From assembly GCA_947574085.1 (NCBI GenBank), contig CANPIH010000001.1, positions 1 to 51,553 on the forward strand: DNA of 51,553 bases, written 5' to 3'. The DNA is from an uncultured Mycoplasmatota bacterium (GTDB taxonomy: Bacteria; Bacillota_I; Bacilli_A; RF39; UBA660). How positions within the stretch are numbered: the stretch's first letter is position 1; the number at the start of each line of letters is the position of its first letter. The notes under the pieces are model-generated. The model made no database searches and was not told where the DNA came from. It saw nothing but the letters and a program-made list of their open reading frames with translations. Both the position numbers and the translations under genes were made by a program. Of the stretch, positions 5,033 through 44,429 are shown one piece after another.

Positions 5033-5044
5033 GGGGGGTGTAGA

Positions 5045-9556: not shown

Positions 9557-9585
9557 TATATACTCTCCTTTCATATATAAAAAAA

Positions 9586-10526: not shown

Positions 10527-10608
10527 ACGTTCTTTCTCCTTATTTTTATTTTTAACATTTTTATATAAAATATACTTTTTTATGTTAAAATAAGGAAAAG
10601 GTGATGAA

Positions 10609-11592
10609 ATGAAAAGAATATTAACTGGTTTAAAACCTAGCGGGGAATTAACATTAGGAAGTTTTATTGGAGGAATAAAGCAAAGTGTGGAATACCAAAA
10701 TATTTACGATTCTTTTATCTTTGTTCCAGATTTGCATGCCATAACAGTTCCTCAAGATGCCAATCTTTTGCATGAACGTATTAAAAAAAATGTAGCTTTA
10801 TATCTTGCTTGCGGAATTGATCCAAATAAAAATACTATATATTTACAATCAGAAAATGTTTATCATACTAATCTTTCTTGGATCCTAGAATGCCATACGT
10901 ATATGGGAGAAGCAAGTCGAATGACACAATACAAAGATAAAGCAAGCAAAAAAGAAAATATCAGCGTTGGCTTATTTACCTATCCTATCTTAATGGCAGC
11001 AGATATTCTTTTATACGATGCCGATTTGGTTCCTGTAGGAATTGATCAAAAACAACACGTTGAATTAGCTCGTAATTTAGCAGAAAGATTTAACCATAAA
11101 TATGGAGAAACTTTTGTTGTACCCGAATCACTTATTCCGAAAGTGGGAGCTAAAATTATGGATTTACAAAATCCTACTAAAAAAATGAGTAAATCGGATG
11201 GAGATACAAAAGGAACAATACTATTATTAGATAAAGAAGAAATCATTCGAAAAAAAATTATGTCTGCTGTTACTGATAGTGAAAATAAAGTCTATTATGA
11301 TTTAGAAAACAAGCCAGGAATTTCTAATCTTTTAACCATTTACTCTAGTTTATCAAATCTTTCTATAAAAGAAACTGAAGAAAAATTTAAAGATTCTAAT
11401 TATGGAAATTTAAAAAAAGAAGTTGCTGATCTGGTTACTACAACTTTATTAGAAATTCAAAAAAAATACCAAGAAATTATAAATTCTGGTATAGTTGATA
11501 GGGTTTTAGAAAACGGACATAAAATTGTTTTAAAGATTGCGAAGAAAAAATACGATAGCGTTTTAAAAAAAGTGGGACTCGGTCGTAATTAG
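10609..11592 (+). CDS. trpS: Tryptophan--tRNA ligase
   Basis: Alignable along its full length to Bacillus TrpS as I remember it: GLKPSGELTLGSFIG, HAITVPQD, GIDQKQHVELARNLAERFN, KMSKSD. Confidence 0.95.
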   Translation: MKRILTGLKPSGELTLGSFIGGIKQSVEYQNIYDSFIFVPDLHAITVPQDANLLHERIKKNVALYLACGIDPNKNTIYLQSENVYHTNLSWILECHTYMGEASRMTQYKDKASKKENISVGLFTYPILMAADILLYDADLVPVGIDQKQHVELARNLAERFNHKYGETFVVPESLIPKVGAKIMDLQNPTKKMSKSDGDTKGTILLLDKEEIIRKKIMSAVTDSENKVYYDLENKPGISNLLTIYSSLSNLSIKETEEKFKDSNYGNLKKEVADLVTTTLLEIQKKYQEIINSGIVDRVLENGHKIVLKIAKKKYDSVLKKVGLGRN

Positions 11593-13429: not shown

Positions 13430-14551
13430 TTAGTTCTCATTATCCTCATTTACTTTCTGTATTAATATTCTATCGTATATTTGTCTTCCATTAATAAGTC
13501 CTCTATGTCTTTGCGTTGGTATGGTTCTTAACTTTTCAACCTCTGGTGTCATATCCCCAGAATGTGTATGTCCAATAATTCTAAATTGTCTTGGACTATG
13601 AAATTTAAGAAATGTTATTGGAACTCCCATAACCTTGTTATAATCAGATGGAATAGCATCATATCTAGGAACTTCTAGTGCATCATAATTATCAAACTTC
13701 GGATATGTATTTAGACCATAATCTTTTTCTAATTTTTTTATTAATGGTTTGTTATATCGTAAATTATCTTGCATAGTCATCAAACTAAGAGTTGTATGTC
13801 GCCTTTTTAAATCAATATTAGTGAACCAACAAATATTGCCCATACTACGCCATTTTTGTCCTTTTTCATCTATCCAAAATCTCGTTTCTCTTGGTTCTAA
13901 ATCTTTTGGTACCTTAAACGCCATATCTCCAGCATTTTTGCCTAACTACATAATTTCGTCTCTAACAAGTGGAAATGTTTCCTTTGTAGTAGCATCATTC
14001 TCATTACCAATTATTATAAATTGCTTTTTTGCTTCTATTAACCACGAAAGAAATTCTCTAAATAATGAAAATGGTGGATTTGTTATTATAATGTCTGATT
14101 CATTTCTTAATTTTTTTACTTCATCAGATCTAAAATCGCCATCGCCTTCAAGATAATCCCATTCCAAATCATATATATCAATTCTTCCAGATTTATTTGT
14201 GTCTCTATCTAAAGTAAATAGTTTTCCATGGGAATTGGTTTTGGTTTTATCATATTTTGAACTTTCCTGCTCAAATAATGATAATTGTTCAAATACTGCA
14301 GTTTTTTTATCGTTAGCATAACTTGTACTTATTAATTTTTTTAAACCAAGTAATAAAAAGTTTTGAGCAAAATATCTTGTAAAATTACTCCATTCTGGGT
14401 CATCACAAGGTAGTAAAACTGTCTTATTTCTAAAAACCTCTGGATTATATTCCAAATAAGCATTCATTTCTCTTTCTATATCTGAATATTCTGTATAAAA
14501 TTCATCATCTTTTTCTTTTTTTGCCCTTTTTAAGCTTTCATTATTTGCCAT
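13430..14551 (-). pseudogene. N6-adenine DNA methyltransferase (EcoRI-methylase-like family) interrupted by one in-frame TAG
   Basis: ORFs 13946..14551 and 13430..13924 are in the same frame, separated by TAG plus 7 sense codons (..VRDEIM*LGKNAGDMAFKVP..). Motifs seen: DEFYTEYSDIE, ITNPPFSLFREF, ICWFTN. No restriction endonuclease gene is nearby. Confidence 0.7.
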
Positions 14552-14648
14552 AATTTACCACCCAAACTATGTATACAAGTATATCATAAAGTCTAAAAAT
14601 TTTGATATATATAATAAAAGATAGATAAAAAAAATAAAGTATTTCACT

Positions 14649-15743
14649 TTAATTTTTATCTTTATTTTCTAATTCATCTACATTTACATTATGAATAGAA
14701 TGAAAACGCTTGGTTATTTTATCAGTAGTAATATTAATTTCTTTTACATCTCTAGTAACAGTATCAATGCTTCGCGATAATTTATCCCAACGTTCTTTAT
14801 AATGAGAAAATTCAAAAGACAATTTATTTAATTCTTCATGAATGACTTTTGCATACTTGTCTCTTTCTATATTTTTTAAAATCATATTTATTGTAGTAAG
14901 TGTACTCATTAATGTAGTTGGACTTGTTATCCAAACCTTCTTATTATAAGCCTCCTTAATTAAATCTGAATGATAGGCATTGATTTCTGCAAAGATGGCT
15001 TCCGCAGGCAAAAAAAGAATTGCTTCACCTGCAGTTTCCCCTGGTACAATATATTTGCTACTAATTGTATCAATGTGTTTTCTTATATCCACTTTAAATT
15101 GTTTCATTGCAATTTCTCTAGCTTCTTTTGACAAAGTTTTATCTGTCATTCTTTGATAATTCTCTAAAGGAAACTTTGAATCTATACAAATTGTTCCTAA
15201 AGGACTTGGTGCATAAAGTATAGCATCCGCTATAAAACCATTACTTAATTTATGTTGTGTCTCGTAGATTCCTATAGAATGTTCTCCAAAAACACTTGTT
15301 AAAATATAATTTAAATTTACTTCTCCAAATATTCCCCTAGTTTTTTTGTCCGTTAATACGCTTTGTAAAGAAACAATTTCTGTAGACAACCCATCAATTT
15401 TTTTCTGAGCTTCGTCAATTTTGGTAAGTCTCTCTAAAATGTTAGTAAAAGTTTTATTAGACTTTTGAAAATTGTCATCTAGTCTTTCATTTACTTTTTC
15501 ATTCATACGTTCTATTTTTTGTTGCATAAGTTCACTTAAATGTTCAAAGTCTTTTCGCAAATCATTAGAAAATCCAAATTTAAACTCTCCAATTTCTTTT
15601 GTTATATTTGTTTCAAATCGTCCCAATCTTTCTAGTGTATTGTCTTCTTTTCCTTTTAAAAGTAAAAGAACTAATAATAAAACAATCAACAATAATATTC
15701 CTAACACTACATACTCCATATACTTCTCACTAATCCAATCCAA
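14649..15743 (-). CDS. rmuC: DNA recombination protein RmuC
   Basis: N-terminal TM, a coiled-coil region, then a C-terminal region with KTRGIFGEVNLNYIL and FLPAEAIFAE, typical of the RmuC family. Confidence 0.8.
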   Translation of the reverse strand: MDWISEKYMEYVVLGILLLIVLLLVLLLLKGKEDNTLERLGRFETNITKEIGEFKFGFSNDLRKDFEHLSELMQQKIERMNEKVNERLDDNFQKSNKTFTNILERLTKIDEAQKKIDGLSTEIVSLQSVLTDKKTRGIFGEVNLNYILTSVFGEHSIGIYETQHKLSNGFIADAILYAPSPLGTICIDSKFPLENYQRMTDKTLSKEAREIAMKQFKVDIRKHIDTISSKYIVPGETAGEAILFLPAEAIFAEINAYHSDLIKEAYNKKVWITSPTTLMSTLTTINMILKNIERDKYAKVIHEELNKLSFEFSHYKERWDKLSRSIDTVTRDVKEINITTDKITKRFHSIHNVNVDELENKDKN

Positions 15744-16311
15744 ATTTTTTATTAATAATTTTACTCAAAACAAATGCAATCAACAATAAAATAGCAACCT
15801 TTAAAAAAGCAATAGGATGAGAGAAACTCTGCACTAAACTTGTTCCAACAAATCCCCAAAACAAAACCAAAAATATTTTTCCAATACACAAAGCTATAAA
15901 AAACTTTTTAAAAGGCATCTTTGAAAGCCCCGCTGCAATATTTACCAAAAAAGCAGGAGTAAATGGAACCGCAATAATAGTAGTTAATTGTTCAAATTTT
16001 ACCTTATTGACGACCATCATAATTTTTTGAAATCTTTTTTTATCTTTTGTTTTTTTATCAAACCAGTTTTTTATTTTTTTACGAAATAAGAAAAAAGACA
16101 ACATACAACCCAAAACTGTAAAAATCCATGAAAGAAAAAAACCTATAATACTTCCAAAAACCAAAAAGTTAATTGTAATAAACACAAACAATGGAAGAAT
16201 TGGCAAAATAGATTCTATTACAATAAAAAAACAGCCAAGAATTGGTCCATATATGCCAATATGTAATAAAAACTCATTAATCAATTTATCCATATTTCCA
16301 ATTATCTCCAT
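15730..16311 (-). CDS. TVP38/TMEM64 (DedA-related) family membrane protein
   Basis: Multi-TM 193-aa protein containing FLVFGSIIGFFLSWIFTVLGCMLSFFLFRK. Confidence 0.65.
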   Translation of the reverse strand: MEIIGNMDKLINEFLLHIGIYGPILGCFFIVIESILPILPLFVFITINFLVFGSIIGFFLSWIFTVLGCMLSFFLFRKKIKNWFDKKTKDKKRFQKIMMVVNKVKFEQLTTIIAVPFTPAFLVNIAAGLSKMPFKKFFIALCIGKIFLVLFWGFVGTSLVQSFSHPIAFLKVAILLLIAFVLSKIINKKFGLD

Positions 16312-16377
16312 AGCACATCACTTTTATTATTATACCACAGGAAAAAGAATTTATAGCTTTGAAAAGTAAACACCAAA

Positions 16378-17217
16378 TTAATTTTGCCTTTCTAAATATT
16401 TAATTCGCTTTCTTTTTAACTCTTCCTTTTTTGCAATAGACTCTTCTTGAAGAGGCATTTTATCAATCAAAGCATGATTTAATAACCACAAATCATCCAA
16501 AATTCTTGCAATTTCAATTTCTTTAACTAAATCTGAATCTCTAATTTCAATACAAACCATTGCATTACAATAAATAAACAAGTTGTTTGATTTGTATTCA
16601 TAATAAGGATTATTTTTTAGATTGGAATTAATAAAATAACGAATAATAGTACAAATTAGCCATAAATCGCTTTGATCTATTCTTTTGTCTACTTTCATAT
16701 AATAATAGCTTAATTGCTTTTTAATACAAAAAGAATCATCACGTAAACTATTTAAATTATATTGTATAGAACTTCGTTTATGATCTGAAGAACGCAAAAC
16801 CAGCTTCTCGATCATGTGTTTTTCAATTGGCAAAATAGCGTATTCATAGAAATCATGCATTTTGATAGACTTTATTGTTTGCTCTAACTTAGACATTTCA
16901 TCAAGAGAATTTTGGGAAAAAAATATATTTAATTTTTCCTCTTCATTATTTTGCAATTTTAAGCCTGTATATTCTACTCCATTCTTTGTTTTTTTAAATG
17001 TATCCGAACAAATAAAAGTTAATTGCTTATTCTGCAAAAAGTGAAAAAAAATAGCTTCGTAAATTTCTTTAGTTGTTTCTTTATACTTTTTCTTAAGAAA
17101 CTTTTGTTTTATTCCATTTGAAGTGACTATAAAAAAACGATAATAAAGATAATTCTGTTGAATCAATTTATTTCCAGAATGTTTTCCTACAAGTACAATC
17201 ATTTCTTTTTTTAACAA
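16378..17217 (-). CDS. Hypothetical protein
   Basis: Intact 279-aa ORF. No HUH, Walker or other motif recognised. Confidence 0.45.
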   Translation of the reverse strand: MLKKEMIVLVGKHSGNKLIQQNYLYYRFFIVTSNGIKQKFLKKKYKETTKEIYEAIFFHFLQNKQLTFICSDTFKKTKNGVEYTGLKLQNNEEEKLNIFFSQNSLDEMSKLEQTIKSIKMHDFYEYAILPIEKHMIEKLVLRSSDHKRSSIQYNLNSLRDDSFCIKKQLSYYYMKVDKRIDQSDLWLICTIIRYFINSNLKNNPYYEYKSNNLFIYCNAMVCIEIRDSDLVKEIEIARILDDLWLLNHALIDKMPLQEESIAKKEELKRKRIKYLERQN

Positions 17218-17294
17218 AATAAAAACCTCCTATTGTATAATGTATTTTTATTTTATACTATTTTTATCTATACGTCAATTTAGGAGATTTTAAA

Positions 17295-17582
17295 TTAATT
17301 TGGCAAAGTTTCACTATTTTTCATTACTTGAGTAACATCATACCCGTAAAATTCTAAAATACTTACTACTTTACGACTATGAATTCCTTTTAAACACATA
17401 ATATAATATTTTTTTTCCTTATTTAATATCTCTTTGTAATGCAATAACAATTTTTCATAAGGTATATTTACACTTCCTGGATAAGGATTTTGTTTATAAC
17501 TAATTTCATCCGATACATCAATTAAAGTTCCCATATCTTTGTTATAAACATTCAAATCTATTCTTTTCATTTGCTTCACCAC
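17295..17582 (-). CDS. Single-domain rhodanese-like protein
   Basis: 95 aa with a candidate active-site loop YIMCLKGIHSRKV. Confidence 0.6.
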   Translation of the reverse strand: MVKQMKRIDLNVYNKDMGTLIDVSDEISYKQNPYPGSVNIPYEKLLLHYKEILNKEKKYYIMCLKGIHSRKVVSILEFYGYDVTQVMKNSETLPN

Positions 17583-17683
17583 TATATTATATGAAAGAAA
17601 ATAAAAAAAACAGAGGATGAAAAACCCGTTTGCTAAATTAAATAAAAAAAAACAAACATTTTGGTTTGCTTTTTTTTATTTTT

Positions 17684-19873
17684 TTAATCGTCATCCCCAA
17701 AAAAATCATCAAAAAATTCATCATCGGTAATAATTGCATCATCTACAATTACACTATCTACATCAATATTAATTTTGGGTTGATCTGGAAGTTTATCTTT
17801 TTTTTCTTTTTTGGGTTGCCTTTTTATAGATGTTTTCTCAGTATTTATTTCCTCTACCTTTGGAATAGCAGAGTTTTGTTTTCTTACTTCTTCTTTTTGC
17901 GTATTTTCCATTACTTCTTTTTTAGGTAATGATTCCATTTCTTTCTTCTGTCTTGCTTCTTCTTCGTCTAATTCTTTTAGTTTTTTATCAATATCTGCAA
18001 TCATACGGTCAATTTCTTCATTAGACGTAGGAGCATTTTTTAAAAAAGGATTTGGAAGTCCCATTCCAGGAAAAGCATTCATAGTAGGCATTCCACTTGG
18101 TTCTATAAAATTAGGCATTCCCATGGCTAAATTTTCTTTATTTTTATCTAAATTTTCAAGCATTGCTTTTCTTTTTTCTTCTGAAACGTATTTTTTAATA
18201 TCAAACAAAGCTATTGCCATTTCTTTTCTAGTAGGCAATTCGGCTTTCTGACGATTAATTCCCCAGTCCATTTTAAAATCTGGTTCTAACTTAGTTTTAA
18301 ATGGATATTTTCTCAAGCGCATAATTATAGCTTCAAATAATTTTAATTTCTGCAAATCTGTCACTGTAACTAATGGAGTGGATGCAGTTTTATCTTTTTC
18401 TTTAGATTTCACATCTCCACACATTTTACTAATTTCTTCTAAAGCAGCCATTTCGGTACTGATCAAATACACCCAATTACCACAATTTCCTTTTATTACT
18501 TCCGCTACTTCTTTTCCATATACATCATTTAATTGAGCAAAATTTTGAATAATAAAAGTAAATCTAATATCACGACTTCGAGCTGCTGAAACCATACTAT
18601 CGACATCCTTTAAAGGAGGCATATTAGCAAATTCATCTAAAATAAAATTAGTACGAAAAGGAAGTTTTCCACCAGTTTCTTTTGCTACGTCTATTAAAGT
18701 TTCATAGCATTGTTTAATAAAAATAGTAAGTAAACTATGATAAGTCGTTTTTTCATCATGAATAATCATAAATACTGCTGTTTTTTCTTTCCCAATATCG
18801 CGCATATTGAAATCACTATGAGAAAGCATTTCACTTAATTTTTCACGGGAAGCAAAAATACGTATTTTTTGTCTAAAAGTAGAAGTAATACCACCTTGCG
18901 TATCTTTCGGAGCATTAATGGTATTTGAAGCAAATATGTATGGACTAGAAGCCTCTCCTTTTAGCAAAAAATATTCCTTAATATAAGTACTTGTAGCAAA
19001 TCTCTCTTCCCCAATACTGCTCATAAAATTGATAGAATTTAAATTAATTTCCTCTTCTTTGGCATCCATAAATAATCCGAGTGCAAGGCCAGAAAAATAA
19101 TCCGCTGCACTATTTTCCCAAAATGGTTCACTTTTATTATTTGGATCGCGAATAATATTTAAACCAACGTCATCCAAAAGCTCAGTAGATTTATCTATAT
19201 TTCCATCTTTATAGTAACGATAAGGCAAAGTTAAAGGATTCCAAGCATTTCCTCTTTGTGGGTCTCTAAAATTCAAAACAATAATTTTATATCCCTGTTT
19301 TTTTAAATAATCCGCACTATATTCATAAATCTCACCTTTAGGATCCGTAATAATCATACTTTCACCCTTTTTAGCAAGTAAATTTACCATTGGTTTTACC
19401 AAACATTCGGTTTTACCAGATCCAGTAGACCCAATAACCAAATTGTGATATTCTCCATTATCAACCCATATATCCTTACCATTATTGATAAGAGGCATCC
19501 CAGCAGCACTAACTTTACGAGCGGTTGGAAGAACATGTTCAATATTTTTATCTTCTTTAATTTCTTTATCTCTACTCCATCTAGAGTATCCCTTCTCTTC
19601 TTTTTCTTTTATGTTAAGACCAAATCCATGTTTTTCACGATCAAAAATATAAGAGGATACAGATGTAAAAATAATAATAAGAGCAATAAAAAACATTAGC
19701 ATGGTAAGAACTAAATTATCCCCTACGAAGGCTGGAAAAGGATTCAAGCCATAAAATTCACCATCATTAAAAAAGGAAGTAAAATTAAGTACTGCTATAG
19801 CACACAAGTACAATAAAAATATACAAAATATGATAAACATTGTAAAATCTTTTGGGGTTACTCTAAATTTCAT
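17684..19873 (-). CDS. Type IV coupling protein (VirD4/TraG family) with a long low-complexity acidic C-terminal tail
   Basis: Two N-terminal TM segments. Walker A IGSTGSGKTE, TDPKGEI, Walker B ILDEFANMP, RSRDIRFTFIIQNFAQL. Start set at the ATG at 19873 (RBS GGAGGA). Confidence 0.9.
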   Translation of the reverse strand: MKFRVTPKDFTMFIIFCIFLLYLCAIAVLNFTSFFNDGEFYGLNPFPAFVGDNLVLTMLMFFIALIIIFTSVSSYIFDREKHGFGLNIKEKEEKGYSRWSRDKEIKEDKNIEHVLPTARKVSAAGMPLINNGKDIWVDNGEYHNLVIGSTGSGKTECLVKPMVNLLAKKGESMIITDPKGEIYEYSADYLKKQGYKIIVLNFRDPQRGNAWNPLTLPYRYYKDGNIDKSTELLDDVGLNIIRDPNNKSEPFWENSAADYFSGLALGLFMDAKEEEINLNSINFMSSIGEERFATSTYIKEYFLLKGEASSPYIFASNTINAPKDTQGGITSTFRQKIRIFASREKLSEMLSHSDFNMRDIGKEKTAVFMIIHDEKTTYHSLLTIFIKQCYETLIDVAKETGGKLPFRTNFILDEFANMPPLKDVDSMVSAARSRDIRFTFIIQNFAQLNDVYGKEVAEVIKGNCGNWVYLISTEMAALEEISKMCGDVKSKEKDKTASTPLVTVTDLQKLKLFEAIIMRLRKYPFKTKLEPDFKMDWGINRQKAELPTRKEMAIALFDIKKYVSEEKRKAMLENLDKNKENLAMGMPNFIEPSGMPTMNAFPGMGLPNPFLKNAPTSNEEIDRMIADIDKKLKELDEEEARQKKEMESLPKKEVMENTQKEEVRKQNSAIPKVEEINTEKTSIKRQPKKEKKDKLPDQPKINIDVDSVIVDDAIITDDEFFDDFFGDDD

Positions 19874-19988
19874 AATACATTCCTCCAACTTATATGTAAA
19901 ATAATTTGTTTTTAAATTTCCATTTTATTTTACTATATAATTTATTTTTTCGCAATTGAATTATTTTCATAAATGGCTTAAATTAAAA

Positions 19989-20774
19989 TTAGTTATTTTT
20001 TACAATATTTACCATTTTGTTATTATTTATTTGATATATATATGTAGAAGATTTTCCAACTTCACTAAAATACCCCTTTAAAAGAATAAAATAATCATTT
20101 TTATTATTAAAAATATTAATTATTCCTTTGGCTTGGTATATAGGAACTTCAATACTGTCCTTCGTATTGTAAATGTCTATATGTAAAACGGAAGTTTTTT
20201 TATTTACAACTGAAATAACAATAGAAAATAATTTCTCATCATTCGAAACATCACTGGCGTTAGAAGCAAATAGAATTTTTTCCTTTTTTCCATCTTTATT
20301 AAAATCGTGTTCTACTACTTCATTTTGTTCTAAAAAAGAATAGCCTGCAACTCCATTTTCAGCTAAATATTTTTCTAATATTAAAATTTCTTCATCATTC
20401 ATTTCACGCTTATCAAAATTAATAACGTTCAAATCTATTTCTTCACTTCCAGCAATATAATTATCAGAAATATTTATCCAGTTATTGTTTTGATCAAAAA
20501 AATTCCATTTGCTAATATACTTTAATTTAAAAATACCAAGATTTTCTCCATATTGAAATACTTGAAAATCACTTTTAGCATTGTTTATGACAAGGCTTTT
20601 ATCTATATTTTTACATCCTTTTTTATTGCATTGATAACTAGAAACATTTGACAATAATAAATAGCCTTGTTTTTGAACTTTATTCACTATATAAACAACC
20701 ATTACTCCCAATACAATTAAAACAAGTATAACCCAAAAAGAAGGAACTTTCACAATTTTTTTTAAGCTTTCCAT
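19989..20774 (-). CDS. Membrane-anchored extracytoplasmic protein of the T4SS module (VirB8-like role possible, unproven)
   Basis: Start at the ATG at 20774 (RBS AAGGAG). A single N-terminal TM (VPSFWVILVLIVLGVMVVYIV) is followed by a soluble domain. Confidence 0.45.
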   Translation of the reverse strand: MESLKKIVKVPSFWVILVLIVLGVMVVYIVNKVQKQGYLLLSNVSSYQCNKKGCKNIDKSLVINNAKSDFQVFQYGENLGIFKLKYISKWNFFDQNNNWINISDNYIAGSEEIDLNVINFDKREMNDEEILILEKYLAENGVAGYSFLEQNEVVEHDFNKDGKKEKILFASNASDVSNDEKLFSIVISVVNKKTSVLHIDIYNTKDSIEVPIYQAKGIINIFNNKNDYFILLKGYFSEVGKSSTYIYQINNNKMVNIVKNN

Positions 20775-32039: not shown

Positions 32040-33035
32040 TTACTTGAAAATACTAAACAATTTATTATTTTTTGTCTCTTCTCCAACTGTTTCTTCAAAA
32101 CGAGCAAAACCCAACTTTATTAAAAATTCTTCTATCACTTTTTGATTATCCAATTTATCATCTAAGTTAGGAATATTAAAGAAAACTTTACTTTTAGATT
32201 CGTATTCAAAATCTTTAACATCTCTAGGATTTAAAATGCTTCGATTTAAAACAATCTTTTTATCACATAATTTTTCAAAAGTACGTTTATCTTTACGAAT
32301 TAATTTATTTAATTTAATTAAACCTGGTTCAATCAAATAAATCACTTCAGTACAAGCACTAATACTTCCTCGGTCATTTAAATCGACCAACATCACTTCA
32401 ACTTCACTGTTTGTAGCAATAAACGCTGGTAAATCCAGACTAGATGTTGTTTTAAGCGTTTTATCATTAAAATAAATAAAATCGTGTTCATCTACTTCTA
32501 CTGCTAAAACATTATATTTTTTTGCTAATTCTTTCTTTAGTAAATATGTCAAAGTAGTGGAACCAGCATGATTGGTCACATTTTTTATACCAATAACTCT
32601 TAATCCAATTTTATTATATCCCCCTTCATTTGAAGAATCTATAGTGGTAACATTGTTTAATTGATGAAATTGGGCAACATCTTTATACGTATTTGGATTA
32701 TCAATTAAGAATTTAATAGCATCAACATTTCTTGTAAAATTATAAATTCCCATAGAAATTAAACTTGATAAATACTTTGGTGAATTTACTATTTCAGAAT
32801 CATCCAAAAGAAGAATAATATTACTTACATCCATACTTACAGATAAACTTTGAAACGTAGAAACTTCTTGGTAATTTCTTAAAGCTGTAACATCCAAAAT
32901 CATTTTATTATAATAAAAATTAGTAAATTGATTGACTAAGTCCTCTACTTCAAATTCTCCATTAATATTTTTAATAATATCAATATCTAATGTTGAGAGT
33001 AGAGATTGATACTTATTGGAAACAATTACATTCAT
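32040..33035 (-). CDS. TadZ/CpaE-like protein (pseudo-receiver + MinD/ParA-like domain with a degenerate Walker A)
   Basis: N-terminal CheY-like pattern (MNVIVSN...MILDVTAL...IILLLDD). C-terminal VIGIKNVTNHAGSTTLTYLL occupies the place of KGGxGKT. It sits in a Tad locus. Confidence 0.5.
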   Translation of the reverse strand: MNVIVSNKYQSLLSTLDIDIIKNINGEFEVEDLVNQFTNFYYNKMILDVTALRNYQEVSTFQSLSVSMDVSNIILLLDDSEIVNSPKYLSSLISMGIYNFTRNVDAIKFLIDNPNTYKDVAQFHQLNNVTTIDSSNEGGYNKIGLRVIGIKNVTNHAGSTTLTYLLKKELAKKYNVLAVEVDEHDFIYFNDKTLKTTSSLDLPAFIATNSEVEVMLVDLNDRGSISACTEVIYLIEPGLIKLNKLIRKDKRTFEKLCDKKIVLNRSILNPRDVKDFEYESKSKVFFNIPNLDDKLDNQKVIEEFLIKLGFARFEETVGEETKNNKLFSIFK

Positions 33036-33553
33036 TTCTTTTCCTCCTTTTTTATTATTTTTAAAGTGTCTCCTGGATGGATAATATTTCCAGTACTGCC
33101 ATTTACATCAAATTTAAAAATATCTCCTAATATAGGTAAATTAAAATATAAAAATAAATTCACTTTATAATAAACTTGCCCTTCCTCTTTATAGTTTTCT
33201 CCATTTGCCATTACACTTTTGCTCATCTTAGTTACACAGTAATAATAATTATTTTTATTCTCTTTGGTTACTTCTGTTAAAGTTGCTGAATCTAAACTAC
33301 GTACACCATAACTTCCTTCAGGACATCTTTTTGTTACTCTATAATTATTGTTTTTTAAATAATTGTTTATAATCTGTATACTGCCATTTTCTTTATCTGT
33401 CAATCCTTCGTATTTTTCTATAATGGTTAGGACTTCATTTTTCATTTTAAATGCTTTTGTGTAATTTAAAGATAAAGCTAAAAAAGCTACAAACAAAAGC
33501 ATAAATATTATAACTAATTGGGTTAACCAAGTTCCTCCTATCGCCTCTCTCAT
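33032..33553 (-). CDS. Pseudopilin / TadE-like minor pilin candidate
   Basis: MREAIGGTWLTQLVIIFMLLFVAFLAL leader plus TM, then a ~140-aa domain. Paralogous to the upstream gene. ATGA overlap with the downstream gene. Confidence 0.45.
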   Translation of the reverse strand: MREAIGGTWLTQLVIIFMLLFVAFLALSLNYTKAFKMKNEVLTIIEKYEGLTDKENGSIQIINNYLKNNNYRVTKRCPEGSYGVRSLDSATLTEVTKENKNNYYYCVTKMSKSVMANGENYKEEGQVYYKVNLFLYFNLPILGDIFKFDVNGSTGNIIHPGDTLKIIKKEEKK

Positions 33554-33557
33554 GTTA

Positions 33558-34163
33558 TCAACCTCCTATTATTGGGCCAGATACAGTACTACAATCAATC
33601 AAAGGTCCAATAGGTTTTCCATTTTCGTATTTTTGACATAGATTATTTTTTTTACGATAATAACCATTTGTATATCGCATTACTTTTGTATCCCCTTTAA
33701 TTCTAAATTGAAAAATACTTCTAAAAATAGGTAAATCTAATTGATAAAATACCACAATACGATAATAACTAGCATCAGGTAAATCCCCTTCGCTTTTATC
33801 TGTTGTTACACTTTGTTTAGCAATACAAAAAGAGGGATTATTTTCTACTATTTTTCCTTCGCGATTATAGCCAATATAGTGGGTAATAACTTTTCCACTT
33901 TTATCAGTAATATCTAAACTTTTACAGTCTCCTGTTGTTCTATACGAAGTTTTATTTAAGTAATCAACAATGTCTTTAATCGCTTGATCTCCCATTGGAT
34001 TTTCTAAATTTACTCCCTTTTCTCGTTCTATAGCTTTTACAATTTCATTTTTTACATTAAATGCCTTGGAATGATTAATTGACAAACATATATACCCTGT
34101 AAAAAGCAATACAAAAAATATTACGATTTGGAATATCCAAGTTCCACCAATTGCCTCTCTCAC
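33558..34163 (-). CDS. Pseudopilin / TadE-like minor pilin candidate
   Basis: MREAIGGTWIFQIVIFFVLLFTGYICL; shares its N-terminus and ..FK.KNE.. with ORF 33032..33553. Confidence 0.45.
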   Translation of the reverse strand: MREAIGGTWIFQIVIFFVLLFTGYICLSINHSKAFNVKNEIVKAIEREKGVNLENPMGDQAIKDIVDYLNKTSYRTTGDCKSLDITDKSGKVITHYIGYNREGKIVENNPSFCIAKQSVTTDKSEGDLPDASYYRIVVFYQLDLPIFRSIFQFRIKGDTKVMRYTNGYYRKKNNLCQKYENGKPIGPLIDCSTVSGPIIGG

Positions 34164-34176
34164 ATGACCACCTCAA

Positions 34177-34419
34177 TTAACCTTTCCAAACGCATTTAAA
34201 AGAATTTCCTTGTTTATTACCATTCTTATCATAATATGCACAAGTAACCATTCCATTGTTTAACGTTTTTTTATCACAAATCGCATCACTACATCGATTT
34301 GTAGAAATATAAGTATTTTTAATACTAGGCCATAAAACCCCAAAGAAAAAGACCGATAGGAATCCTACCGCTACAACAATCACGACAGTTATATTTAATT
34401 CTCCTGTGGCCTCTTTCAT
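34177..34419 (-). CDS. Small pilin-like protein (copy 2)
   Basis: 80 aa: MKEATGELNITVVIVVAVGFLSVFFFGVLWPSIKN, then a Cys-containing variable C-terminus. Confidence 0.55.
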   Translation of the reverse strand: MKEATGELNITVVIVVAVGFLSVFFFGVLWPSIKNTYISTNRCSDAICDKKTLNNGMVTCAYYDKNGNKQGNSFKCVWKG

Positions 34420-34440
34420 ATATTTTTAACTCCTTTTATT

Positions 34441-34719
34441 TTATTTAGCTTGACTAGTTCCATTTTCAAAACTGCATTTTCCAGACCATGCCTTTTGACC
34501 AGTAGTGTCGTCTGCATCAACCCTACAAGAAGTACAAACTGTTTTAGATTTGTCTGTATTACAACTTGCTTGGTCACAAGTAGCCATTGCACAATATGTG
34601 GAAGCAGTTATACTATTTTTTATATTTGGCCAAATAAACGCATAGAAGAATGCCGCTACTGCTGCTATTGCTACTACTGTTACAACAGTCATATTTAATT
34701 CTCCAGTTGCCTCTTTCAT
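34441..34719 (-). CDS. Small pilin-like protein (copy 1)
   Basis: Start moved to the ATG at 34719 (RBS GAGGAGGAA). MKEATGELNMTVVTVVAIAAVAAFFYAFIWPNIKN, then a Cys-rich variable C-terminus. Confidence 0.55.
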   Translation of the reverse strand: MKEATGELNMTVVTVVAIAAVAAFFYAFIWPNIKNSITASTYCAMATCDQASCNTDKSKTVCTSCRVDADDTTGQKAWSGKCSFENGTSQAK

Positions 34720-34775
34720 TTTATAAATTCCTCCTCTTTCATTTGAGTAGGATTGGTAGTAGCAAGCAGTAGCGT

Positions 34776-34925
34776 CTATGTTTCTTTTAAACAGTTTTTC
34801 AAACAATCACTAGACACGTTATCATTTTCTACTGGACATTGTGCTTCACAAGTATTTTTTTTAATACTAACTTGAATACTTGGCCATATAAACGCATATA
34901 AGAATGTCGCTACTGCTACTATCCC
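34776..34925 (-). pseudogene. 5'-truncated third pilin copy
   Basis: The minus-strand frame reads ..GIVAVATFLYAFIWPSIQVSIKKNTCEAQCPVENDNVSSDCLKNCLKET*. The nucleotide sequence is clearly homologous to copy 1 across the TM-coding part and diverges at about 34922. There is no start codon or MKEATGELN leader in frame. Confidence 0.55.
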
Positions 34926-35038
34926 AACCCTTACCCTGTTACTTTTATTATAAACTTTTTTTAGTTTATTATCAATTCTTTATTACTTATTTGACTATTT
35001 CTAGTCATCATCAAAAAAATCCCTTTTTCTTGCTTGTT

Positions 35039-35067
35039 ATTATATCAAGATAATACTTATAAGTCAA
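35039..35067 (-). promoter_or_regulatory. Near-consensus sigma-A promoter ahead of the pilin genes
   Basis: On the minus strand: TTGACT (35067-35062), exactly 17 nt, TATAAT (35044-35039). Confidence 0.65.
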
Positions 35068-35170
35068 AAATAACTTATACAACGCATTTAAAGAAACAGA
35101 ATGATTAAACTTTCTTGGTTTCTAATTCAAATAGGCACTTTTAAAAAAAGAATAAGTTTTATTCCTATTC

Positions 35171-35959
35171 TTACATCCCCATCAGCATTAATACTGCAAA
35201 TATCAAAAGAATCATAACTCCAAGACCAGTTGTAATCAACATACTCATCGTTTTGGATTCCATTTTTTCTAATCTTTCCTTATATTTTGTTTCTCTTGCT
35301 TTTTGTTGTAAATTTGAAATCGTTTTGGAAAAAGCTAGCAATTGTTCTTGCTTATGCTCTTGACGTCCTAAGCTTAAACGATACAATAAACGCATCATAC
35401 GCATAGAATCTCTTACAGGATATTCTCTAGCAAAATTTACATAAGGTTCTATAGTATTGTTACCAGCATTGATCTCATTAATCAATTCTTGCAATCCCTC
35501 TCTAAATATAGGAGGAGCATCATTAATAGATTTTCCCAAAGCTACTGGCACTGTATAATGTTGAATAAGAATTTCTAAACTTTTTAAATAATGTGGCAAC
35601 ATAGAATTGATTTCGTGTAAGTGTGCTTTATAATATTTTTTTATATTCAAATAATCCAATTTAAAAACTAAAAAACCACCTAGAAAACAAAACAATACTG
35701 TTACATAATTCAATTTCGAAATCAAGCAAAATACTAAAACTATAATAGTAATTAATCCATTACGAATTCTTTTATTAAATAAAATATCACTATTTACACC
35801 TTCTCCATATTTTGCTTTTACATAAAAATCCCAATCGTCTTCTTTTAATTTACGGAAATAAACTTCATTATCTCTAATAAAACGATTTGTACTAATGCGT
35901 CCAGTGTAGTTCATAATGTAAAGGAAAATAACTCCAATAATTACAATTTCTATTGCCAT
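35171..35959 (-). CDS. TadC-like platform protein (T2SS-F family)
   Basis: 262 aa with TM segments at both ends flanking a cytoplasmic helical domain (LPHYLKSLEILIQHYTVPVALGKSINDAPPIFREGLQEL). Paired with the upstream paralog next to the TadA ATPase. Confidence 0.65.
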   Translation of the reverse strand: MAIEIVIIGVIFLYIMNYTGRISTNRFIRDNEVYFRKLKEDDWDFYVKAKYGEGVNSDILFNKRIRNGLITIIVLVFCLISKLNYVTVLFCFLGGFLVFKLDYLNIKKYYKAHLHEINSMLPHYLKSLEILIQHYTVPVALGKSINDAPPIFREGLQELINEINAGNNTIEPYVNFAREYPVRDSMRMMRLLYRLSLGRQEHKQEQLLAFSKTISNLQQKARETKYKERLEKMESKTMSMLITTGLGVMILLIFAVLMLMGM

Positions 35960-35960
35960 A

Positions 35961-36854
35961 TTATTCTACCCCCACATCATCGTTATAATATTTTTCTCCA
36001 CTTATAAGAAAGAAACAGTTGATCCAAATGATGGCGTGCAAAACAAGTTTTACATACCAAATATCGAGAAGTTCAATATAACTATCTGTACCTAGCAAAA
36101 ACTGCATGGCCATTACAAGTAAAAATAAGGCAAGTCCAAATGTAATAAAACGTTTGTGAAAATTTTTACGATCTGCTTGATCACGATATACACCTTCTAC
36201 CAGTGCATCAATGTCCTGAGACATATTTTCTAAAGCTTCTCCAGAATCTTTAGCCCCTTCTTTCGTTATTTGTAAAAAAAGTTGATTCATATTTTTTACC
36301 ATATAGAAGGGATATTTTTCATTAAAGAAATCAATAGATTCGTCAATCGTTCCATTTTGATAAGACATTTCTATCATTATTTTTACATCTTGTAAAACAG
36401 GATCCTCCAAAATTCCAGAATCTCTTACTCCTTCTAGACTTTTTACATAACTTTGAGTTGTAGTAAATTCCATTATTACATTGGTTGTATAAATTTGAAT
36501 TTGTTCAAATATAAATTCACTGTAAATTTTTTGATATCTTAAATATGCCAAATAAGGGATAAAAGCAATAGATGCAAGTACATAAAAAATAACCGCTAGA
36601 ATATTGTAAAAGTAAAGATAAGAAATTCCACCAGCAATAACAGCAAATAAAATTACTTGACTAGTATATTGACGTACTGTAAATTCTTGTCCTAATGATT
36701 TTACTTTTTCTCTTACTTCTTTATAACTATAGGGAGCAAATTTGTCGTATGTATCTTTTACTTGTGTTATAAAGAATCGATAAACATTTTCTCCATTGTT
36801 TTGACGATAAGAGACAACATAAATCCCTATAATCCATAAAATGATTAATTCCAT
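35961..36854 (-). CDS. TadB-like platform protein (T2SS-F family)
   Basis: 297 aa with the same TM-helical domain-TM layout. 1-nt gap to the next gene. Confidence 0.65.
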   Translation of the reverse strand: MELIILWIIGIYVVSYRQNNGENVYRFFITQVKDTYDKFAPYSYKEVREKVKSLGQEFTVRQYTSQVILFAVIAGGISYLYFYNILAVIFYVLASIAFIPYLAYLRYQKIYSEFIFEQIQIYTTNVIMEFTTTQSYVKSLEGVRDSGILEDPVLQDVKIMIEMSYQNGTIDESIDFFNEKYPFYMVKNMNQLFLQITKEGAKDSGEALENMSQDIDALVEGVYRDQADRKNFHKRFITFGLALFLLVMAMQFLLGTDSYIELLDIWYVKLVLHAIIWINCFFLISGEKYYNDDVGVE

Positions 36855-36871
36855 TTTTTTGCACCTACTTT

Positions 36872-38032
36872 CTAAATAACCTCTGTATTTGTCATTCTTG
36901 GCATACTATAAGTACTTGTATTCATAGTTGTAGTACTTGATTGTAATTTTGTAGCTGAAGCAGAAACATTATCATTATTTGTCCTAAAAATATTTTCTGG
37001 TACCATAACACCTTGAATAGCTAAATAATCTTTTAAATGTTTAGTTGGGTTTTTTAAAGCTAATTTTCCATCCATTGTTTTTTGATAAATGATATTCACT
37101 TGTGGCTTATTTTCCTCATCTACATAAAACTCACATATTTCCATAATTTCTCTTTGAAATCTTCCTAGTTCTTTGCTCATATATCCTTTTACATAAACTC
37201 CAATTTGAATATAGCGATGAATAGTAGTTAAAAATTGCTCAACATCCTGATTAGATTCCAACAAACTATACATACGCATAGGTATACTACTGGCTTTATC
37301 TGAGTGAATAGTTGATAAAATGTGATGCCCAGAAGAAATTGAATTACGTATTGCAAGTACAGCCTCAGCACTACGAACTTCAGACAATAATATCCAAATT
37401 GGATTTTGACGCATACAGGTAACCAAAACCTCTGAATAAGAAGCAATATTATTGGTTTTCATAGCCACTATATCTCTATGAGGAAAAATTCGATCCAAAT
37501 GAAGCTCTAATGTATCTTCAATTGTTATAATTTTTTCATCCTCTTTTGTAGTACCCGCCAAATATTTAACCAACTCTGTTTTTCCAGAACCTGTTTCTCC
37601 GCTTACTATAATATTCGCATGTCCTTTTACACATTGTAACAAAAAATCCAATAAATCTTCTGAAACGTATTTCTCATTAATTAATTTTTCTTTATTCAAA
37701 CGAATTTTTGCTGGAGTTTTACGAATCAAACAAGCAATTCCATTGGTAGCAATAGAATCATGTATAAAATTCAAACGCAATTCTGTAGATTCAGCATCTA
37801 AAAAAGGATGAGCCATATTGAAAGTCTTCCCCATAACATTTGAACATTGAAAAGCCAATTTTTCCATAAGGTTATTATTAATCTCTGGTCTTTCCACTTT
37901 ATAAACACCACGAGAAAGTGTCTTAACCCATACTTGTCCACCATTACTATAGGAAATATCTGTTACATCATCTACTCGTAAAAATTCTTCTAAAGGACCA
38001 AAGTCCAATTGAGAAAATATTGAATCATCCAT
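36872..38032 (-). CDS. TadA/CpaF-type secretion ATPase (T2SS-E / VirB11 superfamily)
   Basis: Walker A VSGETGSGKTE, Walker B-like MRQNPIWILLSEVR, His box GHHILSTIHS. Confidence 0.9.
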   Translation of the reverse strand: MDDSIFSQLDFGPLEEFLRVDDVTDISYSNGGQVWVKTLSRGVYKVERPEINNNLMEKLAFQCSNVMGKTFNMAHPFLDAESTELRLNFIHDSIATNGIACLIRKTPAKIRLNKEKLINEKYVSEDLLDFLLQCVKGHANIIVSGETGSGKTELVKYLAGTTKEDEKIITIEDTLELHLDRIFPHRDIVAMKTNNIASYSEVLVTCMRQNPIWILLSEVRSAEAVLAIRNSISSGHHILSTIHSDKASSIPMRMYSLLESNQDVEQFLTTIHRYIQIGVYVKGYMSKELGRFQREIMEICEFYVDEENKPQVNIIYQKTMDGKLALKNPTKHLKDYLAIQGVMVPENIFRTNNDNVSASATKLQSSTTTMNTSTYSMPRMTNTEVI

Positions 38033-38063
38033 TTCTAGACACCCTCTTTATCATCTTTTTTTG

Positions 38064-38903
38064 TTATTGATTATTGTTATTATCATTATTATTATCATTT
38101 TGATTTGTGCTTGAGGTTGTATTTTGCGGAATTGTTGCACTTTTTGCTAAAATGAAACTTTTAATATAATCACTTGATACATTGGTTTCTCCAGGATTTG
38201 CACTATAAGATGCATTTCTTGGAACTGGAACAATCTCAATTGAAGATCCACTTATATACCCAGCTTTCATTAATAATTCATACATATCATTTGGTACAGC
38301 AAATAATAACTCACTTGGTGTACGAGATTCTACAGTTGTTTCAAACACATGATTTCCTTGACTGTCTTTTACCGCCAATACTTTAATGCTTTCAATAAAT
38401 TTTCCATACATAACAAGACCTGTATCGTCAATTCCTTTAAAATACAAATCAATATAATTTTCAGGATAAATTGAATTACCATAAGTAGTATGTAAATTAA
38501 CATTCAAACTATAAATCGTATAGCCATCTGGAATATCTGCAAATGCACTATCAGGCATTTCATTGGATTTCAAAATTTGTGATTTATAAAACATACTATT
38601 AGCTGGCACAGTTGTACCAAAAGACACATAATTATTAATAAGTTCATTGGCATTTGTAATTAAATTTGAACTATTTCTCACTACACTACTAGATACTTCC
38701 ATATAACCAATCATGTCAGAAGTAATTAAAGTACGTGAAGATATTTCTTGTTTTGCATATGGTACAGTAACTGGAGTTGTAGCTTGTTTTACACGATAAT
38801 TATAACCTAAATATATAACCAATATAGCAAGTAATACTCCCAAAATTGTTACAGTGTTTTTGTTGGCTAAAAATCTTTTAACCGTTGTTAATACATTTCC
38901 CAT
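38064..38903 (-). CDS. CpaB/RcpC-like pilus assembly protein (N-terminal TM + SAF-like domain)
   Basis: TM TVTILGVLLAILVIYLGY, then VTVPYAKQEISSRTLITSDMIGYMEV, typical of the CpaB N-terminal region. Asn/Asp-rich C-terminus. Confidence 0.6.
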   Translation of the reverse strand: MGNVLTTVKRFLANKNTVTILGVLLAILVIYLGYNYRVKQATTPVTVPYAKQEISSRTLITSDMIGYMEVSSSVVRNSSNLITNANELINNYVSFGTTVPANSMFYKSQILKSNEMPDSAFADIPDGYTIYSLNVNLHTTYGNSIYPENYIDLYFKGIDDTGLVMYGKFIESIKVLAVKDSQGNHVFETTVESRTPSELLFAVPNDMYELLMKAGYISGSSIEIVPVPRNASYSANPGETNVSSDYIKSFILAKSATIPQNTTSSTNQNDNNNDNNNNQ

Positions 38904-38915
38904 TTTTCATTCCTC

Positions 38916-39338
38916 CTAATTATCGGATGCTTTTTCTGGAACCATAAGTTCTAGAATTGCATCCACTTTATTTACTATATCAAATGAAGTTTGATCACCT
39001 GCTATTGTAAAACTTTTCGATTTACTTGAAACTTTCACACTTACCTTTGGTGGTGCTTCATAAATATCATAAAATGATATTTCGTAAGTATTAAAGCTTA
39101 CATTTTCTGCAAACCTTCTAATAAACGATTCAATAAACTTTTCACGATCTATTTTAAGTTCGCCATACTTACGATAGTATCCATAATTTACAGCATCTAC
39201 CATAGCGGCTTCTGTAACTTCTTTAATTAAATAATAATCTTGTGTATTTTGAGTAGTAACGCTAGAAATCAACATCATAATAACTACTACAAAAACACCT
39301 AACATTATAATCCAATAACCCCAATACGTTTCTTTCAC
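38916..39338 (-). CDS. Small N-terminally anchored protein with a pilin-like leader
   Basis: MKETYWGYWIIMLGVFVVVIMMLISS resembles the MKEA/MREA leaders of the pilin and pseudopilin genes. Confidence 0.45.
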   Translation of the reverse strand: MKETYWGYWIIMLGVFVVVIMMLISSVTTQNTQDYYLIKEVTEAAMVDAVNYGYYRKYGELKIDREKFIESFIRRFAENVSFNTYEISFYDIYEAPPKVSVKVSSKSKSFTIAGDQTSFDIVNKVDAILELMVPEKASDN

Positions 39339-43131: not shown

Positions 43132-43249
43132 GGGAAAATTTGCTTTAAATAAAGGATCTCAAAGTAATCAAACAAACAAAATAATAAACAAAAAATAAAT
43201 CGACTTTAAAATTTTTACAATCTATGTTATATTTTAAATGGTGATTGTA

Positions 43250-43711
43250 ATGGAAAATAAAAAAAGAACTTTTATACTTTGCTCAGTACTAATAATAATG
43301 TTGGGAGTAGGAATTATTTTTATTTGTCGTTCTACTTTCAATAATAATAATAATAATAATAAAGAATCCAAATTAGTATCGATTTCTGTAACAGAATTGG
43401 AAGCAAAAATGAACAAGAAAGAAAACTTTGTACTCGTTCTTAGTCAAACTGGTTGTAGTCATTGTGAACAATACTTACCAGAATTAGATCGTACATTAAA
43501 AGAAGTAAAATTTAATGCATTTGTTATAAATGTTACAGACCTTTCGAGTGAAGAAATGGCTGTTTTAAATCGTCATGTAAATTTTTCTGGAACCCCTACT
43601 ACCATTTTTTTTCATGAAGGAAATGAATCAACAACTTTAAATCGAATTGTAGGATATGCGGGCAAAGCTAAAATAATAGAAAGATTAAAATCATTGGGGT
43701 ATATAGATTAA
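43250..43711 (+). CDS. Membrane-anchored extracytoplasmic thioredoxin-like protein (CxxC)
   Basis: TM FILCSVLIIMLGVGIIF, a poly-Asn linker, then VLVLSQTGCSHCEQYLPEL and the cis-Pro motif GTPTTIFF. Confidence 0.75.
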   Translation: MENKKRTFILCSVLIIMLGVGIIFICRSTFNNNNNNNKESKLVSISVTELEAKMNKKENFVLVLSQTGCSHCEQYLPELDRTLKEVKFNAFVINVTDLSSEEMAVLNRHVNFSGTPTTIFFHEGNESTTLNRIVGYAGKAKIIERLKSLGYID

Positions 43712-43712
43712 T

Positions 43713-44429
43713 ATGGAAAAGATTGAAAAATTCACAAAAGGTATTTTGTTTAGTGTAGGTATTTTTGTACTTTATTATTTAATATGTCCGAATTTATTTG
43801 CATTATTATTTAAAAAATTTTTAACTAGTGATAATTTTTGGATTTCCAATTTTGCTTTTTTAGGAATATACGCATTTACTTTTCTTATTTTATTTTTAAT
43901 TGTTCACAAAGACATTTTAAAGCAATGGAAAGCATTTATAAAAGATCCAAAACGTTTTTTAAATAAAGGATTTTCTTATTGGGGATATGGATTAATTTTC
44001 ATGATGCTTTGCAATTTGCTCATTTCATCCATTGTAGGAAATATCGCTGTAAACGAACAAGAAACAAGACAACTATTATTTAAAGCACCTTTATACGCCC
44101 TTCCTACTACTATCTTTTTTGGACCATTTTTAGAAGAACTTGTATTTCGCTTAGGCTTTAGAAAATCATTTAACAAAAAAATTCCTTTTGCTTTATGTTC
44201 AGCATTTGTTTTTGGTTTGTTGCATGTATTAGCTGCAATTGATTCATTTACAATTGCAAATTTAATGACCCATTGGAAAGAGTTTTTATTTATTATTCCC
44301 TATGGTTCTATAGGATTCTTTTTTGCAAAAGCTTATTACGAAACTGACAATATTTTTTCTTCTATAATACCTCATATGTTTCATAATGCTATGTCAGTTT
44401 TCCTTATTTATCTTACACAGGTCTTATAA
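43713..44429 (+). CDS. CPBP-family (CAAX-type) intramembrane protease
   Basis: Motifs LEELVFRLGFR, FVFGLLHV and IPHMFHNAM in a polytopic protein. Confidence 0.8.
   Translation: MEKIEKFTKGILFSVGIFVLYYLICPNLFALLFKKFLTSDNFWISNFAFLGIYAFTFLILFLIVHKDILKQWKAFIKDPKRFLNKGFSYWGYGLIFMMLCNLLISSIVGNIAVNEQETRQLLFKAPLYALPTTIFFGPFLEELVFRLGFRKSFNKKIPFALCSAFVFGLLHVLAAIDSFTIANLMTHWKEFLFIIPYGSIGFFFAKAYYETDNIFSSIIPHMFHNAMSVFLIYLTQVL

Follow-up and report, generated by a model that had tools for sequence, protein, structure and literature searches.

Cleavage by a prepilin peptidase is regarded as defining for all type IV filaments, whether pili, type II secretion pseudopili, competence pili or archaella. An array of genes found on a stretch of 51,553 nucleotides from an uncultured Mycoplasmatota bacterium (contig CANPIH010000001.1 of assembly GCA_947574085.1; GTDB lineage Bacillota_I, Bacilli_A, RF39, UBA660), which at its full length is called the window here, raises the question of whether this rule is general. 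The array is probably a Tad-like type IV filament system with non-canonical, fixed-start subunits. Two small cysteine-rich pilin-like proteins and two larger pseudopilin-like proteins begin with the same short tag, M-[KR]-[ED]-A-x-G, and, in the reading that we tentatively favour, this tag would stay on the protein.

Five open reading frames (ORFs) with a common start had been singled out by a reading of the letters made before this analysis (the sequence-only reading), and all five exist as described, with M[KR]E followed by a hydrophobic helix. Each of them is preceded by a Shine-Dalgarno-like sequence and four have an in-frame stop two to five codons upstream. A start of the form M[KR]E is found in 2.5–3% of the ORFs of this genome and, since it is so rare, its presence in three independent gene families is not a matter of chance. 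The five genes and the other five members of the array are listed below in the order of transcription.

38916..39338, minus strand: DUF5411 protein (PF17424), 140 amino acids, GTG start, beginning MKETYWGYW.
38064..38903, minus strand: CpaB/RcpC-like protein, below the cut-off for RcpC (E 8.3e-4, 19.7 bits against 28.8) and likewise for TIGR03177 (E 9.4e-5, 21.8 bits against 71).
36872..38032, minus strand: TadA/CpaF-like secretion ATPase (T2SSE, E 3.9e-26), with CpaF as the closest solved relative in a PDB sequence search (E 1.4e-17).
35961..36854, minus strand: TadB-like polytopic platform protein, a paralogue of the TadC-like protein (hhalign E 5.4e-5).
35171..35959, minus strand: TadC-like polytopic platform protein, weakly similar to PilC of the same genome (E 0.09).
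34441..34719, minus strand: small cysteine-rich pilin-like protein 1, 92 amino acids, starting MKEATGELNMTVV, with AGGAGG 8 nucleotides upstream of the ATG at 34719.
34177..34419, minus strand: small cysteine-rich pilin-like protein 2, 80 amino acids, starting MKEATGELNITVV, a paralogue of protein 1, with in-frame stops 3 and 7 codons upstream of its ATG.
33558..34163, minus strand: pseudopilin-like protein 1, 201 amino acids, GTG start, starting MREAIGGTWIFQ (MREAIGGTW).
33032..33553, minus strand: pseudopilin-like protein 2, 173 amino acids, starting MREAIGGTWLTQ (MREAIGGTW), modelled with a long N-terminal helix and a beta-sheet.
32040..33035, minus strand: TadZ/CpaE-like degenerate ParA-type protein (weak CbiA match, E 0.023).

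For pilin-like protein 1, the ORF as originally listed has 121 amino acids and reaches back to a TTG at 34806; the real start is the ATG at 34719.

The conservation of the start was followed in about 138 related loci, which were searched with profiles of the pilin, pseudopilin and DUF5411 classes. Position 1 of the model fell on the start codon in every gene, with 222/222 for the pilins, 222/222 for the pseudopilins and 109/109 for DUF5411 (553/553 altogether), and about half of these 553 genes have an in-frame stop no more than two codons upstream. The pilin start MKEATGELNMT was found to be 92–99% conserved and constant in length, with K2 at 97%, E3 at 92%, A4 at 99%, T5 at 92% and G6 at 98%, followed by E7 (99.5%), L8 (94%) and N9 (97%). 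Residues 2–5 are conserved to the same degree as residues 6–12, and the family is hypervariable beyond the N-terminal helix. The pseudopilins keep [RK]2 in 99%, [EDQ]3 in 93% and G6 in 88% of the sequences, with Ser6 in 10%. The start of DUF5411 is the least conserved of the three classes (K2 68%, E3 60%, W6 79%, G7 73%).

The homologues of the pilin form 1862 clusters at 90% identity and 386 representatives at 50% identity, and none of the 1862 clusters has a Pfam domain or a name beyond 'hypothetical protein'. All of the 120 nearest clusters begin at residue 1. Among the best 150 of the 386 representatives, all 150 align residue 1 to residue 1, and the start is therefore constant in length. 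The exact pilin motif was located at 586 places in a collection of species-representative genomes, and the tag M-[KR]-E-x-x-G is conserved in hundreds of species. The glutamate at position 3 had been taken as part of the shared leader; since one pilin clade carries Ala in its place (MKAATGELNLTV) while G6-E7 is invariant, it is the latter pair and not Glu3 that is key in the pilins.

Alignment of the leaders from homologous loci, which the sequence-only reading had proposed for defining a cleavage motif, yielded a conserved tag of fixed length and not the variable, basic leader of a class III signal. Leaders of the latter kind occur in the same genome, where ten canonical prepilins have basic leaders of 5–10 residues, rich in K, R or N and variable in sequence, that end in G and are followed by E at +5 (for example MKKKG/FTLVE, MVKNMKDNKG/FTLIE and MVIKNQKG/QALVEY). 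The tag holds one K or R and one or two acidic residues, has nothing basic at −2 or −3 and carries a net charge that is zero or negative. Cleavage after Gly6 would place Glu at +1 in the pilins and would give an acidic +5 residue in no class, this position being Thr11 in the pilins (93%) and Phe, Thr or Leu in the pseudopilins. The earlier view that the N-termini are unlike the Flp and the type IVa/Com signatures was borne out, as no Flp_Fap, TadE or N_methyl-type match was obtained at E ≤ 1. Gly6 had also been put forward as a possible class III site; its conservation is sufficient for one, the match being in form only.

The next point concerns whether these proteins are subunits of a filament machine at all. 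The window has a G+C content of 27% and its array belongs to a single long operon on the minus strand that runs from about 43071 down to 17684. At the front of the operon stand an anchored protein of 252 amino acids and a cysteine-rich secreted protein of 986 amino acids, followed by DUF5411, the CpaB/RcpC-like protein and the CpaF-like ATPase; the polytopic proteins of 297 and 262 amino acids, the two small cysteine-rich proteins, the proteins of 201 and 173 amino acids and the TadZ-like protein make up its middle part, and four T4SS_pilin-domain proteins, VirB4, a wall hydrolase and VirD4 close it. Here a Tad-like module and a monoderm type IV secretion system are joined in one operon, and the combination is nearly core in one family of gut Bacilli, where the DUF5411 marker of the array was present in 44 of the 51 genomes sampled. 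The gene order is kept in about 138 loci, and the position of the TadZ-like gene was found unchanged in genomes G219 and G037.

Scans of all ten array proteins with Pfam and NCBIfam gave firm names for the ATPase and DUF5411 only. No family was assigned to pseudopilin-like protein 1 in these profile scans, the pilins of the window had no match to Flp_Fap, PF04964, at E ≤ 1–10, and TadE (PF07811), for which a TadE-like protein on contig C11 of the same genome scores E 5.2e-12, was unmatched in the window proteins. The two platform proteins had no direct T2SSF match at E ≤ 1. For the TadB-like protein, Pfam gave no match and a PDB sequence search was empty; tblastn linked it to a gene annotated as T2SS F family on a plasmid of Priestia koreensis (24% identity, 84% coverage, E 6e-7). 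In the TadC-like family, none of the 11 members scanned with Pfam matched T2SSF.

The AlphaFold2 model of pseudopilin-like protein 2 (predicted local distance difference test, pLDDT, 84.8) has a helix at residues 5–47, a second one at 58–68 and a five-stranded sheet; Cys77 and Cys106 are invariant in an alignment of 46 sequences. The DUF5411 model (pLDDT 79) has a helix at residues 3–48 followed by an alpha/beta domain. Both models share the general shape of a pilin, and a Foldseek search with them against the PDB returned nothing below E 0.1. Because neither profiles nor folds gave a match, membership of the pilin family is argued from context and shape. The earlier description of five pilin-like proteins was an overstatement, in that no pilin family or fold was matched and DUF5411 is a doubtful member.

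It is considered likely, and with good confidence, that the four small and medium-sized proteins are subunits of a Tad-like machine. In the mechanism proposed here, the two cysteine-rich pilins of about 80–90 amino acids and the two pseudopilins of about 170–200 amino acids would be the fibre subunits of a very divergent member of this group, pilin-like protein 1 probably being the major, variable one. The remaining parts of the machine would be DUF5411, the CpaB-like protein, the CpaF-like ATPase, the TadB/TadC-like pair and the TadZ-like protein, placed at the front of a monoderm type IV secretion operon. The ATPase and the platform would extract the subunits from the membrane and polymerise them, as in other type IV filaments.

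The position of DUF5411 is less clear. The protein is bitopic, with a long N-terminal helix and an alpha/beta ectodomain, and PF17424 covers residues 1–131 with E 3.6e-57 (192.5 bits against a cut-off of 30). It might perhaps be counted as a fifth fibre subunit; a fifth pilin is not justified, since its start is the weakest of the three classes, it occurs in the Priestia module described below and its relatives carry C-terminal extensions. It may be a core part of the machine or a modular minor subunit, and it is a marker of this class of machine. Many of its relatives (such as P0268, P0272, L056, L068 and L071) have long C-terminal extensions, seen either as Flg_new (PF09479) repeats or as total lengths of 300–580 amino acids, and in this they resemble modular minor pilins that display extra domains. 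On contig C6 of genome G310, two DUF5411 genes (15897–16289 and 19946–20338) lie 4 kb apart with secreted proteins between them, which looks like a local duplication of the operon front. A phylum-level survey of DUF5411 for clostridial relatives returned only the class already sampled.

When the array was compared with Tad/Flp (type IVc) systems, namely Cpa of Caulobacter, Tad of Aggregatibacter and the locus on contig C11 of the same genome, the likeness was found in the CpaF-like ATPase, the paralogous platform-like pair, the CpaB-like and TadZ-like proteins, the small pilins followed by larger pseudopilins, and the gene order. The array differs from them in that it has no Flp_Fap or TadE match and no G/xxxxEY, in its fixed, non-basic tag of six residues, in the lack of TadV in the loci, in a platform that the T2SSF profile does not recognise, in the extra DUF5411 component and in the fusion to a type IV secretion operon. 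A clostridial operon with CpaF, PilC/GspF and DUF5411, uncharacterised and predicted to be secretion-related, was reported from Roseburia, Ruminococcus and Eubacterium (Miller et al. 2022; PMC9523054). Tad-like loci of Gram-positive bacteria that show no prepilin motif and are reported to contain tadV were described earlier (Imam et al. 2011; PMC3244431). Compared by description, these loci are similar to the array in being Tad-like modules of Firmicutes with the DUF5411 marker and no recognisable prepilins; the MKE..G subunit family and its fixed start are absent from both descriptions.

Related modules were also found on plasmids. The plasmid NZ_CP061869 of Priestia koreensis (L184) carries at 5228–11007, behind surface proteins with S-layer-homology and Ig-like domains, the genes DUF5411, SAF domain, hypothetical protein, CpaF/VirB11, T2SS F and hypothetical protein, the SAF domain-containing one being at the CpaB-like position. 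No MKE-type small pilin was seen in this plasmid module, which gives the impression of a pared-down version of the machine. For the ATPase, 657 relatives were found on plasmids, most of them from Bacillus, Listeria and Enterococcus. One of these plasmids, NZ_CP128115 of Bacillus halotolerans (L185), belongs to the pLS20 family; at 2790–9147, where its conjugation operon starts, it encodes a thioester adhesin, a bitopic protein of 126 amino acids, an ATPase (33% identity to that of the array, E 4e-41) and membrane proteins of 267 and 245 amino acids. The same stretch ends with a protein of 114 amino acids and two small ones of 47 (starting MEQNSGRLF) and 65 amino acids (starting MEPNTDRLY).

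In the literature on the pLS20 family, gene 37 is listed as a 'putative VirB11' and genes 36 and 38–41 as 'unknown', and no pilus components are said to be encoded (PMC8557374). Genes 36–41 have the same order and sizes as their counterparts in the array, and their small proteins also have short non-basic starts; they differ in being very distant in sequence and in having no CpaB-like or TadZ-like gene in the stretch read. Profile links are weak (DUF5411 E 5.6e-5, TadB-like E 1.2e-3, pilin E 4.5e-3, the last in register from Met1), and in a tblastn search neither DUF5411 nor the pilin matched any plasmid. At the level of sequence, these findings are suggestive of a distant counterpart of the array. 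The thin pilus of R64 (IncI), which is of type IVb and aids conjugation in liquid, is a further case of a type IV pilus module and a conjugative type IV secretion system being encoded together. It differs from the array in having its own prepilin peptidase, PilU, canonical prepilins with long leaders and a diderm host, and it belongs to an unrelated pilus lineage.

The sequence-only reading had found no aspartic peptidase of the A24 family in the locus, and this was upheld: the window contains none, and a PilD profile of our own, with which positive controls scored, found 0 A24 ORFs in the 138 array loci (2.0 Mb). The genome-wide search that had been suggested did return one such enzyme elsewhere. 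It is of the PilD/ComC type and 267 amino acids long, carries two CxxC pairs and the motif GGGDIKF, and is encoded next to PilC and PilB on contig C2. The genome (an assembly of 1.36 Mb in 129 contigs, 86% complete) holds three filament systems and one detectable A24 peptidase; the systems are the array, a type IVa/Com system that includes at least seven KKG/FTLVELL-type pilins and a Tad system on contig C11.

The C11 locus lies outside the window, at about 14472–19367 on the minus strand, and is a textbook Tad locus with TadZ, a TadA of 451 amino acids, TadB and TadC. Its Flp starts MVIKNQKG/QALVEY (Flp_Fap E 2.9e-8) and its TadE-like proteins start MNRKNQKG/QALVEF (the one that scores with TadE, as given above) and MNKKG/QTLILF. 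It has no TadV of its own, and because this canonical system likewise lacks one, the absence of a linked peptidase at the array is weak evidence; an unlinked peptidase is the norm in this organism.

Across the family, 397 of the 401 genomes have A24, which proved unlinked to the array in every comparison of positions and was also present in the seven sampled family genomes without the array. The four family genomes without A24 all have the array, and three of them are also without PilC. They were rejected as evidence: PilC and PilD are neighbours, so that a single assembly gap explains both absences; the genomes have a completeness of 93–95%, and the absences are fewer than chance gaps predict. 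In another family of the class, neither A24 nor T2SSF was found in any genome tested. Genome G037, which is 99% complete, is a member of this second family. The array of G037 is intact and colinear from DUF5411 to VirD4, A24 is absent, and the proteins start MKEASGELNMTV, MREALGFTK and MKEPFLLVG.

Our favoured reading, held at a little under an even chance, is that the four proteins are fibre subunits of a divergent Tad-like machine from which the tag is not cleaved by an A24 peptidase. In this proposal the N-terminus would be a hard-wired tag, M-[KR]-[ED]-A-x-G, in place of a class III leader that varies in length and is discarded; it would stay on the protein, and in the pilins the invariant Glu7, where the hydrophobic helix begins, would take the role that Glu5 has in ordinary pilins. 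A protein of 49 amino acids, MKEILQEYGGFIL (MKEILQEYGG), bears on the register. Its gene is found in G211 and G407 (L078 414–563 and L079 321–470), two genomes of a third family within the class, where it has a stop codon right before its ATG and lies just upstream of a divergent DUF5411 gene. This Flp-like protein aligns in register with the pilins over residues 1–39 (hhalign E 1.4e-4) and has the EY of Flp at positions 7–8, preceded by no Gly. The alignment suggests that Glu7 of the pilins is the equivalent of Glu5 in ordinary Flp, so that the 'leader' would have shrunk to Met-Lys. A direct alignment of the pilins with canonical Flp was too weak to be used for the register (E 0.005, gapped). 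One of the two small proteins of the pLS20-family plasmid has Asp at position 6 and no Gly.

A bolder form of the proposal, in which the array would represent the first class of type IV filament with no need for a prepilin peptidase, Met-Lys being kept and Glu7 replacing Glu5, is rated clearly below an even chance. A literature search on leaderless or peptidase-independent pilins and on DUF4320 found nothing relevant. Several points weigh against a retained tag. To our knowledge, all characterised type IV filaments need a prepilin peptidase, which is a strong prior against retention. Gly6 is conserved as expected of a class III site, six residues is a normal length for leaders of type IVa, nearly the whole family has a PilD-type peptidase, and PilD mainly requires Gly at −1. 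G037 is the only clean case of an array without A24. The profile and fold searches placed none of the subunits among pilins and the platform proteins have no direct T2SSF match.

According to the strongest alternative, the tag is a short, atypical class III signal (MKEATG/ELN and MREAIG/GTW) that is cut after Gly6 by the unlinked PilD/ComC-type A24 enzyme; this single peptidase would then serve the type IVa/Com system, the canonical Tad system and the array. The proposal gains from the conservation of Gly6 in pilins and pseudopilins and of Gly7 in DUF5411, from a leader length equal to that of type IVa leaders, from the one intact PilD with its CxxC pairs and GGGDIKF beside PilC and PilB, from the 397/401 genomes with A24, and from the C11 Tad system, which also depends on an unlinked peptidase. 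Against it, residues 2–5 are conserved like the mature part and the length is constant, whereas the canonical leaders of the same genome vary freely; nor is there a basic residue beside the Gly. The mature proteins would begin with Glu1 and would be without Glu5, 10% of the pseudopilins have Ser6, the Flp-like variant of the third family and one pLS20-family protein have no Gly, and G037 has the array and no A24. On balance, cleavage by PilD is regarded as somewhat unlikely.

It was also considered that some or all of the five proteins could be ordinary bitopic components of a Tad-like or type IV secretion machine, with a cytoplasmic tag that docks on the ATPase or the platform. This would agree with the lack of a pilin family or fold match, with the weak start of DUF5411 and its occurrence in a plasmid module where no MKE-type small pilin was seen, and with a tag that is not basic, unlike all prepilin leaders known to us. 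The small proteins, on the other hand, are duplicated, hypervariable past the helix and have cysteine-rich tails, like exposed major pilins; the predicted structure of the pseudopilin has a pilin-like long helix and a sheet; and the two pilin genes and then two pseudopilin genes that come straight after the platform genes stand in the order known from Tad. For the set as a whole this explanation is improbable; a non-fibre bitopic role fits DUF5411 best and is most plausible there.

Processing by a protease outside the A24 family, either the CPBP-family neighbour or an enzyme that trims Met-Lys/Arg so that Glu7 lands at +5, is very doubtful: loss of two residues would restore a +5 Glu in the pilins (EATGE) and a perfect xxxxEY in the Flp-like variant (EILQEY), and [KR]2 is 97–99% conserved, but we know of no protease of the needed specificity in any filament system, and the pseudopilins would remain without Glu5. 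The neighbour in question is the following gene.

43713..44429, plus strand: CPBP (Rce1-like) intramembrane protease, PF02517, E 2.9e-13, 50.3 bits against 22.4.

Its assignment to the CPBP family in the sequence-only reading, and its transcription divergent from the array, were both correct. A role in processing, which had been offered there as speculation, found no support beyond neighbourhood in a test of synteny, and the gene was rejected as the processing enzyme. In about eleven genomes of the genus, some 4 kb separate it from DUF5411, which speaks for a link; it is non-adjacent in at least four other genomes with the array, four genomes that have no array still possess it, and in G037 the two are on separate contigs. 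The CPBP protease is probably not part of the array system.

Two further observations were made in the window. At 43238–43711 on the plus strand, adjoining the cysteine-rich operon, a membrane-anchored thioredoxin-like protein is encoded (Thioredoxin_2, E 5.6e-7), which may be a disulfide-forming helper for the proteins of the operon that are rich in cysteine or have an invariant cysteine pair. At 13430–13924 and 13946–14551 on the minus strand, an EcoRI-type adenine methyltransferase is split over two neighbouring ORFs, one covering profile positions 2–186 and the other 199–344; the split reflects either a frameshift in the gene or an error in sequencing.

A very widespread subunit family that breaks each rule of the prepilin signal offers a natural test of whether cleavage is obligatory. 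Because the pLS20-family plasmids appear to hold distant counterparts, B. subtilis, with ComC as its single A24 peptidase, can address this question. The presence of such a module in type IV secretion operons also bears on the long-standing view that conjugation in Gram-positive bacteria proceeds without pili.

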